Part shown: positions 1 to 63,583 of the stretch, piece after piece
How the letters are laid out: every line of letters begins with the position of its first letter
Position numbering within the stretch: position 1 is the first letter of the stretch
Origin: Eledone cirrhosa
Taxonomy: Eukaryota
Assembly (NCBI GenBank): GCA_964016885.1
Contig: OZ024742.1
Span: 74,586,001 to 74,650,000, forward strand
DNA: 64,000 nucleotides
Reading direction: 5' to 3'
Notes under the pieces: model-generated
The model's input: only the letters and a program-made list of their open reading frames with translations
Told to the model about the DNA's origin: nothing
Database searches by the model: none
Translations under genes and position numbers: made by a program

Positions 1-2208
1 CATCGCTTTGCCCCTCCACTCGCCGAGTTGCAAAGCGACTGACTTGTCCCGGTTCAGCTTAGCCCCTGTCAACCTTTCGTACTCCTCTAGTAAGGTGCCG
101 ATTGCCTCGATTTCCGAGGCGGTCGACACCATTACTGTTACGTCATCGGCGTAGGCCGACACCGCTTTGCGCAATCCCGGTTCCAAAGGGATGCCCTGCA
201 ACAACTCCAACTTCCGCAGTAATGGCTCGAGAGTCAATACATACAGAAGGGAGGAGAGAGGGCACCCCTGTCGGATGGAGCGGGTGATTTCGAACGGCTC
301 CGAAAGGTAGCCGTTCACCTTGATTCTAGAGCAGATGCGGCTGCTGTGCATGGCAGTGATCCAGCCCCTGAAAACGGGTCCGAACCCAGCCGCCGCTAGC
401 ACCGCATCCAGGTAACCATGGTCCACCCTATCGAACGCTTTAGACTGATCTAAATTTATCAGGGCTCCACCAAAGCCGGGTTCGTTCCCAACCCTCTCTA
501 TGATGTATCGCATGAGGTGGAGGTTGTCGTGGATGGACCTGGACGGGATAGCGCATGTCTGCGCATCTCCCACCAGGCCCCCCACGACAAGCGCCAACCT
601 CTTCGCTAACACCTTCGCCAAAATCTTTAACTCTGCATTTAGCAGAGTTATGGGCCTAAAATTACTAATGTCATCCCCCTTGTTCTCGTCCTTCCTCACT
701 AGCGAGACTACGCCCTTGGTCACAGAACAGGGAATTCTCCCGTTCTGTTGCCAGTTGCAGTAGACCGCCTCGAGGAGATCGGGGAACAAGTCCGGCATAT
801 TAATATATAGTTCGTAGGGCAGACCATCGAGTCCTGGAGATTTGCGTTTGCCGCATAGGCTCAGCACGTCCCCTATTTCAGCAGCTGAGATCGGCCCGTC
901 GCAGGACCTCGCCTCCCCGTCCGAAAGACGCGGCAGGCCGTCGAGGTATGGACCGAAATCCACATCTCCAACCGGCTCCCCGCCCCTCCCGAACAATTGG
1001 GCAAAGTGCCTTTGAAAGGCCTCGCACATTTGCTTAGGTTCAAGGATCAGCCGTCCATCCTGGTCTCGCAAAGACCGGATAGTGGATTTAATCCCACTTT
1101 TCGCTTCTGTCACGCGGGCCCAGCTAACAGCTTTGGTCCCCTCGTTTCCCAGAGCACGTATTTTGCTTCGGACAACGCAGCCTTCGTGTTTCGCGTCGAA
1201 GAACTGGTTCAAGACCGTTCTCGACGCTTGCACTCTGGCCACGTTGCCGCTTCTCATTGCCTCTTCAACATTAACTACCAACTCCCTTTCCTTCCTATTT
1301 CTATCTGAGGCTAACTCCTTACTAACTCCTATTGAAACTACTCTAATCTCTCTTTTTAGAGAGCCCCACCACCTGTTGTTGACGATGGCGCCCGTCAACT
1401 GCTCCTTAACTAAGGTTCTAATCCGGTCCCTGTAAGCTCTACTTGCCGGTAAGGACAAGTTGAGCTTCCAGTAACCGGGCCCCTGCCTATGCGTTCTATC
1501 AAGGTGGACTACGCAGGTCACTAACTTGTGGTCTGAATAGCCCACCATGAGCATTTCTGGACAACTTAAAAAGTCCCTATCCTTAATTCTAACTAAGAAC
1601 CTATCTAGGTACGATCTAGATTGACCACTGTTATTTGACCAGGTCCAGGTTGGTACAGTCGGAAAATCTAGTCGGTATCTATCGGCCAGGTCGAATCGGC
1701 CGATTAACCCCTTAAGGCTGTTACACCCCCCTCTATCGGGACATGCCCCTACATAGTCCCAACGTGCATCTAGGATACCATTCCAGTCCCCCACTAAAAG
1801 CAAGGAGCGGGACGTCCCTAGAAAAGTCTCCAGACGATGGAAGAAGTCCGACCGCATTGCCCCAAAAGGGGCGTATACGGCGACAAGCCTAAAAGCTTCG
1901 CCTTCGCCATTGCCAAGGTCCAGAACCACGAGTCGACCCTCCGGGTCCAAGTGTACCGTCTGTGTAGCGAGACCCAGATGTTTTTGCAGCAGAACGACAA
2001 CCCCACCCCCACCTCCGGGCTGACAGAGAGATGCGTGCATCTCAAAGTCATCAAAGGTGGGGGTTAGCTGTCGCATGCTGCTGATCCGGGCCTCGCAAAT
2101 AACCATCACATTTACACATTGTGACCTGAGGTCACTTAGAAGTTTAGCTTGCTTCCAAGGTGAGCCCAGGCCACGCGCATTTAGACAACCCACTCTTAAG
2201 ACAGCCAT
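1..2208 (-). CDS. ORF2 (APE endonuclease + reverse transcriptase), partial at window edge
   Basis: Manual translation from ATG 2208 gives MAVLRVGCLNARGLG...LVAVYAP...LLVGDWN, later FRPITLLN and DQSKAFDRV, with AYADDV (156-139) in the same frame. The ORF track reports no terminated ORF in this frame, consistent with at least 736 open codons. Confidence 0.9.
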   Translation of the reverse strand, partial: MAVLRVGCLNARGLGSPWKQAKLLSDLRSQCVNVMVICEARISSMRQLTPTFDDFEMHASLCQPGGGGGVVVLLQKHLGLATQTVHLDPEGRLVVLDLGNGEGEAFRLVAVYAPFGAMRSDFFHRLETFLGTSRSLLLVGDWNGILDARWDYVGACPDRGGCNSLKGLIGRFDLADRYRLDFPTVPTWTWSNNSGQSRSYLDRFLVRIKDRDFLSCPEMLMVGYSDHKLVTCVVHLDRTHRQGPGYWKLNLSLPASRAYRDRIRTLVKEQLTGAIVNNRWWGSLKREIRVVSIGVSKELASDRNRKERELVVNVEEAMRSGNVARVQASRTVLNQFFDAKHEGCVVRSKIRALGNEGTKAVSWARVTEAKSGIKSTIRSLRDQDGRLILEPKQMCEAFQRHFAQLFGRGGEPVGDVDFGPYLDGLPRLSDGEARSCDGPISAAEIGDVLSLCGKRKSPGLDGLPYELYINMPDLFPDLLEAVYCNWQQNGRIPCSVTKGVVSLVRKDENKGDDISNFRPITLLNAELKILAKVLAKRLALVVGGLVGDAQTCAIPSRSIHDNLHLMRYIIERVGNEPGFGGALINLDQSKAFDRVDHGYLDAVLAAAGFGPVFRGWITAMHSSRICSRIKVNGYLSEPFEITRSIRQGCPLSSLLYVLTLEPLLRKLELLQGIPLEPGLRKAVSAYADDVTVMVSTASEIEAIGTLLEEYERLTGAKLNRDKSVALQLGEWRGKAM

Positions 2209-2231
2209 GTTGGTGGCAAAGAAAGAGGCAC

Positions 2232-62980: not shown

Positions 62981-63078
62981 TAATAATAATAATAATAATA
63001 ATAATAATAATAATAATAATAATAATAATAATAATAATAATAATAATAATAATAATAATAATAATAATAATAATAATG
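62981..63078. repeat. (AAT)n spacer between Tx1 copies G and H
   Basis: Directly visible. Confidence 0.95.
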
Positions 63079-63583
63079 ATTTCTTTATTAACCACAAGGG
63101 TTTACATAAAGTAGACATTAAGGACAGTGCAGGACAATGCAGGACGGTACAAATGGGCATTTCTGCGTGTAAAAAAACAAAAACAGAGGATGTAACAAAA
63201 ATAACAATGAAAATAACAATGAAAAATTCCCCAATAGGGGGGAGACTTCGGAGGGACATTTGTGGAGAAAGCCCAGTAAAAAGCCACAATGACCCTGACC
63301 ACCAAGGCAAGTGCCCTCTCCCAGTTTTCCACCTTTAGTTTACAGATATATACTCAGAGTCGGCCCATTCACTCGGGCCATTCTTGCTTCTCTCACCCAT
63401 CTTTCAACAAAATGCTGGGAAGAGAGCACTTCCTTCTCTACTCTGATTTTCCTTTTCAAATGAAATTTGAAAAAGTCAATCAGAGCATCACCGAAGAGGT
63501 AAGTGCTCGTCTTCAGCCCTTTCAAACGTCTCCACCATACTATCTCTTTCGCCATGGCCACCAGACAGATAAAAACTGCCCAT
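63079..63583 (-). mobile_element. Tx1-clade copy H (AAT family), short 3' fragment nearly identical to copy F
   Basis: MAKEIVWWRRLKGLKTSTYLF...NGPTLSIYL*. The 5' junction runs into (AAT)n. Confidence 0.9.

Follow-up and report, generated by a model that had tools for sequence, protein, structure and literature searches.

Tx1-like retrotransposons of Eledone cirrhosa inserted, lineage by lineage, into tandem repeats that pre-date them

How long interspersed nuclear elements (LINEs) come to target microsatellites is poorly understood (PMC3812793). The question is raised by a stretch of 64,000 nucleotides from the cephalopod Eledone cirrhosa (assembly GCA_964016885.1, contig OZ024742.1, positions 74,586,001 to 74,650,000; the window below), in which Tx1-like LINEs stand in rows with simple repeats between them: were the repeats there before the elements, or did the elements make them? 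The original prediction, made from the letters of the window, had read the elements as microsatellite-targeting retrotransposons that insert repeatedly beside earlier copies. We find that the repeat is present at empty sites, that insertion has a fixed orientation and duplicates 9-17 bp, that the target is bound to the lineage, that extra units are found at the 5' end and that target sequence is left on both sides. The account as a whole, by which every lineage occupies a tandem repeat of its own that was there beforehand, on a fixed strand, by way of a nick made by its apurinic/apyrimidinic endonuclease (APE) and pairing of the RNA tail, appears to us quite probable, and targeting as such highly probable; that RNA pairing has a real role in choosing among repeats is an evenly balanced matter.

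Each of the 17 junctions listed in the original prediction was printed and read in sequence context. All eight minus-strand 3' ends (5479, 10073, 35692, 35766, 41377, 53438, 59113 and 63079) were found to share the terminus CCC(Y)(H)GTGG(Y/H)AATAAA-(0-2 nt)-GAAA, followed directly by a simple repeat with no poly(A), as had been claimed; two of them, at 10073 (~90 bp) and 35692 (~25 bp), are stubs. The 5' junctions at 4152, 41287, 53397, 7801, 35716, 62980 and 63583 do lie in the same repeat type, that of copy F (54966-54981) falls within ATT and carries a short duplication, and copy D is the exception it had been taken for, its 5' junction at ~45920 falling outside repeats. Copies A-D had been described as using GATA/GACA-AT repeats; the spacers 4152-5479 and 7801-10073 are compound satellites (TA/TCTACC/TGTC) of 1.3 and 2.3 kb and not plain GATA. 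Read 5' to 3' on the minus strand, array 1 consists of a stub, the 2.3-kb satellite, B, the 1.3-kb satellite and A; array 2 of D, (TATC)23, C, (TATC)11 and a stub; and array 3 of H, (ATT)33, G, ATT, a short interspersed nuclear element (SINE), ATT, an opposite-strand LINE, a SINE, ATT, F, (ATT)14 and E. Copy E is a 5' half without the second open reading frame (ORF2), with a 66% match to the ORF1 region that precedes an ORF2 at locus L100. The features are as follows.

1..4152, minus strand: copy A, full length, intact, of a TGTC-targeting subfamily; extends 1,451 bp past the window start
2232-3980, minus strand: ORF1 of copy A, 582 amino acids, open
From 2205, minus strand: ORF2 of copy A with APE, reverse transcriptase (RT) and CCHC, 1,145 amino acids including the part past the window start (L088), open
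4153..5478: compound TA/TGTC satellite into which A is inserted and which flanks B on the 3' side
5479..7801, minus strand: copy B of a TATC-type lineage, 5'-truncated and reaching from the RT to the 3' end
7802..10073: compound (TA)n-TCTACC-TGTC satellite, 2.3 kb
10074..10160, minus strand: 3' stub, ~90 bp; its 5' flank is degenerate TGTC/TATC
35692..35716, minus strand: 3'-terminal stub, ~25 bp, hairpin plus AATAAAGAAA, within TATC
35717..35765: (TATC) tract, ~11 units
35766..41287, minus strand: copy C, full length but decayed, with an ATAG-type 3' end and flanked by TATC on either side
41288..41377: (TATC) tract, 23 units
41378..45920, minus strand: copy D, decayed, with an internal deletion; 5' junction outside repeats
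51660..53397, minus strand: copy E of an ATT lineage, reduced to the 5' untranslated region (UTR) and a portion of ORF1 by loss of its 3' part
53398..53438: (ATT) tract, ~14 units
53439..54981, minus strand: copy F, 5'-truncated, ATT family, short duplication at the 5' junction
54988..55181, minus strand: SINE ending in the common hairpin and ATT
55381..58870, plus strand: LINE, likely Dong/R4-like, with RT, CCHC and a restriction-like endonuclease motif; terminates in (AAT)n and faces the array tail to tail
58886..59076, minus strand: SINE flanked by two ATT tracts
59077..59112: (ATT) tract, the empty allele of a full-length insertion carried by paralogue P2
59113..62980, minus strand: copy G, older ATT lineage, begins just upstream of ORF2, interrupted by a SINE
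59211..59430, plus strand: SINE in the 3' UTR of copy G, with a 15-18 bp target duplication starting ATTA
62981..63079: (ATT) tract, 33 units
63080..63583, minus strand: copy H, young, 5'-truncated, ATT family, 99.8% to an intact copy; window paralogue only
63584..63602: (ATT) tract 5' of H, in all three paralogues

Window positions 10974-63034 lie within a tandem triplication of ~140 kb (G000:C3:74.29-74.66 Mb), the copies of which differ by 0.16-0.25% plus several indels; comparison of the three paralogues gave 63-94 differences per 38 kb. Copy A is absent from both sister paralogues, and at its site the satellite of P2 is continuous; relative to P2, copy A is accompanied by a 17-bp duplication and by 16 extra bases of pure TGTC before its 5' end. 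Only in P2 does the tract at 59077-59112 hold an intact copy of the ATT family, and the ATC interruption of that tract stands on both sides of the insertion. Copy H is found in the window paralogue only, and the same ATT tract in the sisters holds a full-length Dong-like element in the opposite direction. Since three insertions (A, the P2 copy and H) thus stand in repeats that exist without them, the repeat pre-dates the insertion. The original prediction would have fallen had empty alleles lacked the microsatellite; those of all three insertions keep it.

Flanks were then scored in a sample of 54 ATT-family copies, taken from 100 listed places, and of 48 TATC/TGTC copies that came from among the best search hits. 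The 5' flanks of full-length copies lie in ATT in 26/26 cases for the ATT family and in their own repeat in 22/24 for the TATC/TGTC group, and none shows the repeat of the other family or the opposite strand; 3' flanks are in their own repeat in 49/54 and 39/48, while 1.1-1.9% of background positions satisfy the same flank rules. These proportions lie above the 20% of flanks of one type by which target-specific insertion has been recognised (PMC4494074). A few ATT copies are bordered by CTT tracts, and some 3' flanks hold only one or two repeat units. In the young subfamily of copy A, 35/35 of the 5' flanks and 33/35 of the 3' flanks are TATC/TGTC repeats, with TGTC dominant in 34 and 30, respectively, counts that include non-independent array neighbours. 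With one copy taken from each of 25 loci, locus-specific repeat variants are shared between a copy's own 5' and 3' flanks at a mean of 0.277, compared with 0.051 after permutation (p 5e-5). A self-made tail would not give such locus-matched variants, which therefore count against an origin of the repeats as tails only. Individual target duplications of 16 bp (L111), 14 bp (L163), 17 bp (L256) and 9 bp (L380) were identified. The claim of sequence-specific insertion is thus upheld by the empty paralogous alleles, the flanks of the young subfamily and the variants that match on both sides. The repeats at full-length 5' junctions cannot serve as independent evidence of targeting, as had been proposed, because they are partly added by the element: besides the extra units, the pure TGTC run of A-type full-length copies has a median of 18 nt at the 5' junction and 8 nt on the 3' side.

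Truncated copies had been put forward as the more telling case. After dropping rows in which the alignment ended inside the element (4/28 ATT and 6/24 TATC/TGTC of the copies that are not full length), a strict rule placed the truncated 5' junction in the repeat in 10/24 ATT (p ~1e-11) and 7/18 TATC/TGTC copies (p ~2e-8), and any simple repeat was found at 16/24 and 8/18, with a background of 4.9%. The enrichment is strong, and this part of the argument stands; the older TATC/TGTC junctions, however, fall mostly in non-repeat DNA, which for that sample is formally the outcome named in advance as contrary to targeting.

The genome searched has 3.0 Gb. One 26-letter 3' end of the ATT family has 7,713 exact matches in it and the general 3'-end pattern 26,911, and reversed controls gave 0 for both; the two sets may overlap. 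Such tens of thousands of LINE ends in repeats, those of the window among them, represent an active radiation of APE-type, Tx1-like LINEs. A 401-bp stretch of the endonuclease sequence of copy A recurs identically in at least 40 places (40 scored of 3,843 candidates), so the subfamily of A is very young, and on contig C1 intact full-length copies stand five in a row. Among the first 100 ATT-family places listed, 25/99 gaps are no longer than 10.1 kb (1.8 expected), and 24/25 of these close pairs lie on the same strand, in agreement with the polarity ascribed to the arrays, which reach 30-46 kb in the genome. The likeness drawn to HeT-A/TART and SART/TRAS stacks does not go beyond shape: the window lies at 74.6 Mb of a 379-Mb contig, the ATT and TATC/TGTC copies are spread along contigs, and the target of the satellite lineage described below is not a telomeric repeat, though its listed places lean to contig ends.

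The proposal of two families with different repeats proved correct in separating the ATT from the TATC/TGTC lineages, but too narrow: ATT, TATC, TGTC and a 72-bp satellite make up a minimum of four targets. Of the first 100 listed ends of the general pattern, ten enter this satellite at one fixed base, and 284 exact junctions of this kind occur genome-wide. In the satellite lineage the satellite lies downstream in 29/30 copies, the full-length 5' junctions seen are all at one other fixed base, and one truncated copy has a 9-bp duplication. Intact copies of this lineage stand six head to tail at G000:C1:4221001-4261000 (L271-L274); locus L042 also belongs to it. In quick protein trees the ATT lineages branch first and the TATC/TGTC group forms a clade (SH-aLRT 96, RT) with the satellite lineage inside it, which is also the closest relative of copy C in ORF2. 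The targets are not those of the Kibi/Koshi type, (TC)n/(TTC)n; TCTC follows 4 of 100 listed ends.

Within the TATC/TGTC group the last bases of the element vary with the repeat. Ends reading AATAAACAGAAA (ACAG) precede TGTC 216 times and TATC 20 times, and ends reading AATAAATAGAAA (ATAG) precede TGTC 0 times genome-wide; by hand count among the first 100 listed, 68/73 ATAG rows stand before TATC, the rest before TCTC (4) and GATC (1). A hairpin is predicted in which the base that differs between ACAG and ATAG pairs with the one that differs between the repeats. A clade with support of 97/89 unites ten TATC-flanked copies, of which nine are ATAG, and a single ATAG clade is rejected only when copy C is included (p-AU 0.007 with it, 0.16 without). 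The idea that this base is rewritten at each insertion was ruled out, given that 20 ACAG ends precede TATC and that the state tracks the lineage.

Several of these observations weigh against the account of targeting given above. As the terminal base follows the lineage, the link between ATAG and TATC amounts to one or two evolutionary events and not to hundreds. Truncated junctions lie in no simple repeat in 10/18 of the older TATC/TGTC copies and in 8/24 ATT copies. Of those ten, three are fused to other element sequence, which suggests later deletion; one belongs to the satellite lineage, and the others are unexplained. Young truncated copies are few in the sample. The pooled automated test for duplications was not significant (2/48 and 5/54, p ~0.1), because pure repeats hide duplications. 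The absence of A and H from the sister paralogues could reflect loss there, against which their near-identity to intact copies elsewhere argues; copy B, present in one paralogue and absent from P1 only, is most simply missing by deletion between satellites.

Could the repeats instead be tails made by the elements through RT slippage, with later copies piling into old tails and no host repeat being targeted? LINEs that make their tails exist, such as UnaL2 (PMC3747384), the elements do add repeat at their 5' side, and copy D and other truncated copies have the repeat on the 3' side only. However, the three empty alleles contradict this explanation, the 3' flanks vary between loci and match their own 5' flank, some of them comprise just one or two units, and a 72-bp satellite is not a slippage tail; we consider it very improbable. 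It is likewise improbable, if a little less remote, that the arrays are only tandem duplications of single insertions, the repeats merely promoting unequal exchange or survival. Duplication has evidently occurred: an array at G000:C3:358.73-358.78 Mb holds nine same-strand 3' ends in 46 kb, three units of which have one internal deletion in common; on C1 two array units share one 800-bp Dong fragment, and neighbours also have identical spacers; and copy B was apparently lost from one paralogue. On the other hand, the arrays of the window join lineages that are only 74-92% alike, a unit at L256 carries its 17-bp imperfect duplication immediately before the next copy, and the copy found only in P2 was inserted beside G. 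Duplication therefore holds as a contributing process and not as the sole one: arrays grow through both re-insertion and tandem duplication, and the original prediction of re-insertion beside earlier copies was right for one of the two.

What selects the repeat is a separate question. The catalytic APE residues are intact and align with those of the L1 endonuclease (EN), in which the EN hairpin loop affects selectivity (PMC1950540). For this loop the main ATT family has mostly TNRIGS, TATC and TGTC copies alike have TNHSGQ, copy A has SNNSGQ, and C, D and the satellite lineage share TNRSGT. The loop thus distinguishes ATT from all others, whereas TATC cannot be told by it from TGTC or from the satellite. 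In trees the EN domains likewise sort ATT from TATC/TGTC and do not separate TATC from TGTC. The 3' junctions of TATC, TGTC and satellite copies have in common TCT(A/G)T a few bases past the element end, and those of ATT copies have ATTA. Target repeats mapped onto the APE tree, as had been suggested, fit a role of the endonuclease between the two groups; switches within TATC/TGTC are not obviously explained by it alone.

In the mechanism that we propose, the APE endonuclease would nick a short core within the repeat (inferred cores near ATTA and TCT(A/G)T). Repeat sequence read through at the 3' end of the RNA would anneal to the nicked strand and so prime reverse transcription with no poly(A) involved, in the manner proposed for R1Bm and SART1Bm (PMC7265360), and a conserved 3' hairpin would act as the recognition signal for the RT. 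Transcripts would begin and end inside the flanking repeat, the 5' leader annealing upstream; the TGTC run at the 5' junction and the fixed 5' junction in the satellite suggest that transcripts start in the upstream repeat. As every insertion leaves target on both sides, later copies can land beside earlier ones, whole units being duplicated or removed afterwards by unequal exchange.

Two readings of target choice compete within this scheme. The endonuclease alone may set the target, each lineage having evolved its own cleavage preference with the RNA flanks following. The EN domains do differ between ATT and TATC/TGTC, the Tx1L endonuclease nicks its own target almost exclusively in vitro (PMC1950540), and a SINE with an ATT-type tail accepts many sites starting with ATTA; yet TATC and TGTC copies have the same loop and the tree does not tell their endonucleases apart, a single loop is likewise common to C, D and the satellite lineage, and the satellite site has only TCTAT in common with TATC repeats. 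We regard this reading as a serious possibility that falls short of being probable. Alternatively, it might be mainly the RNA that reprograms the target: a near-unchanged endonuclease would license the TCT(A/G)T core, repeat or satellite sequence at both transcript ends would pair with the target, and the hairpin would be kept by compensatory change (U-A with TATC, C-G with TGTC). This remains tentative, and we would call it rather unlikely. Under the same RNA-guided reading, a copy landing in a new repeat would found a lineage specific to it, as from TATC to TGTC and to the 72-bp satellite, and the switch would be inherited, a possibility we treat with equal reserve.

The hairpin precedes AATAAA at the LINE 3' end and has a stem of 3-4 bp and a loop C-Y-H-G-U. 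Its stem pairs are kept in 225, 223, 222 and 197 of 227 ends, with swaps between lineages from G-C to A-U and from U-A to A-U (the counts are copies, not events). A SINE of ~190 bp has a similar terminus and the loop CUUGU in 54/55 copies, with two stem pairs flipped and 51-52/55 paired. Duplications of at least 10 bp accompany 22/55 SINE copies, compared with 5.4% of mismatched pairs; they are 10-21 bp long and mostly start with ATTA. In the window this SINE is found at 54988-55181, 58886-59076, 59211-59430, 11838-12011 and 16349-16540. The shared 3' stem-loop with compensatory pairs and the insertion signature, compared between this SINE and these LINEs, fit a stringent LINE/SINE pair (PMC3747384), and the abundant SINE is likely the partner of the ATT family. 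The SINE may resemble Meta-SINEs. Its core was not found in two searched supplement files of PMC4824008.

The opposite-strand element at 55381-58870, for which an RTE label was dropped on the basis of its motifs, is likely Dong/R4-like, a clade name assigned presumptively from those motifs. It has the RT, the motifs and AAT flanks. Two Dong-like families end in (AAT)n, and 8/11 scored 5' junctions of one of them also lie in AAT. Dong itself, of the R4 clade, is TAA-specific (PMC3812793), and the Dong-like family here uses the same ATT tracts as the ATT lineage; unlike the Tx1-like elements, Dong has a restriction-like endonuclease and takes the opposite strand, which results in tail-to-tail placement.

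As to their classification, the elements are APE-type LINEs of the L1 group, with intact ORF1 and ORF2, the Pfam domains Exo_endo_phos, RVT_1 and zf-RVT, and 5'-truncated copies with single 9-17 bp target duplications (the pooled test being not significant). The best match among solved structures is human L1 ORF2p (E 4e-52, compared with 1e-21 for R2). Judged from their proteins, they likely belong to the Tx1 clade, as originally proposed: phmmer scores were 229-366 bits for eight proteins, from fish or unnamed, of which three bear the automatic label Transposon TX1, compared with 179-180 bits for human L1 ORF2p. In an RT tree with no curated Tx1 or L1, however, the cephalopod clade (97/100) and the TX1-labelled clade (100/97) lie in one unresolved fork. 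The Tetraodon pol-like protein BAC82605, presumably a deposit of the Kibi/Koshi series, falls in the fish clade of this tree. The nearest named homologues come from Argonauta (63%) and a cuttlefish (47%). A metagenome scan returned distant relatives only and no cephalopod loci, the ESM Atlas only generic RT/EN clusters, and protein cluster look-ups no curated Tx1 element by name.

The principle of microsatellite-specific Tx1 elements is already known: Kibi and Koshi of teleosts use (TC)n and (TTC)n, and crocodilian Tx1 families (TTCC)n/(TTTC)n (PMC4494074, PMC3812793). These are, as far as the cited accounts extend, likewise APE-type, Tx1-like two-ORF elements in which related lineages have related repeats; here the host is a cephalopod, and ATT, TATC, TGTC and a 72-bp satellite serve as targets within a single radiation. 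The window elements do not group with the fish TX1-labelled clade in the RT tree. Tx1L of Xenopus, the type element of the clade and also a sequence-specific APE element, targets a DNA transposon and has an eleven-residue hairpin loop, longer than the L1-length loop here (PMC1950540). R1Bm and SART1Bm are APE-type and site-specific, annealing of target-like RNA to the nicked strand has been proposed for them, and SART stacks in telomeric repeats; they differ in belonging to the R1 clade, in their ribosomal DNA and telomere targets and in the poly(A) of SART (PMC7265360), whereas interstitial repeats without poly(A) are involved here. Tx1-Mar and SINEU-3, again a Tx1 family with a SINE at the same target, form tandem insertions that enclose one target duplication (PMC4494074). 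SINEU has a poly(A) tail, and that description reports no shared 3' end for SINEU-1, whereas the SINE and LINE here have a hairpin loop and terminus in common. An account of Octopus vulgaris names L1-Tx1 and Dong-R4 among the recently active families, in a text that makes no mention of the word target (PMC13282606). Literature searches that did not extend to Repbase or to subscription journals showed no published description of Tx1 elements with specific targets in cephalopods; the families may already be curated there.

The value of the case, that of real and well-supported repeat-specific, likely Tx1-clade retrotransposons, is that close and intact relatives have switched target recently. 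How site-specific LINEs change their targets, by the endonuclease or by RNA pairing, is poorly understood; the relatives described here are very young and differ in target, and since the endonucleases of TATC and TGTC copies are almost alike, the question becomes testable. Should the RNA-guided reading be true, this would be a heritable, RNA-guided target switch in a LINE. The radiation makes and splits microsatellites, has an abundant SINE as its likely passenger and uses ATT tracts that a Dong-like element occupies as well, and is thus relevant to the annotation of cephalopod repeats and to microsatellite markers; a repeat-specific inserter is also of interest for genome engineering.

Some further features of the elements were observed. 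At L161 a copy has an inverted 5' part with its outer end in TGTC repeats, as twin priming would give. At L095-L174, in both target groups, ORF2 and 3' ends that are almost identical stand behind several different 5' UTR/ORF1 modules, a pattern suggestive of repeated exchange of the 5' half. A perfect splice-donor-like GGTAAGT followed by a pyrimidine run is present at the end of ORF1, just before the start of ORF2, in 93/104 copies (window ~2205-2240 in A), and is kept across lineages whose ORF1s are only ~25% alike.

Elsewhere in the window, an Rfam scan of which gave no match, an old, strongly decayed LINE of another kind was read by eye at ~48900-51350 on the minus strand. A fragmented Gypsy-like long terminal repeat element with RT, RNase H and integrase occupies 29238-32530 on the plus strand; its direct repeats of 460 bp (27925-28384 and 32753-33210) are 97% alike, and the paralogues hold an extra 2.2 kb at ~29112. 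Several direct and inverted repeats of 230-830 bp lie at 18200-25050. Within the triplicated unit, an intronless ORF of 640 codons (46470-48392, plus strand) encodes an ADAMTS cysteine-rich domain; as the usual zinc-binding HExxH motif was not seen in it, its product may be an inactive metalloprotease-like protein.

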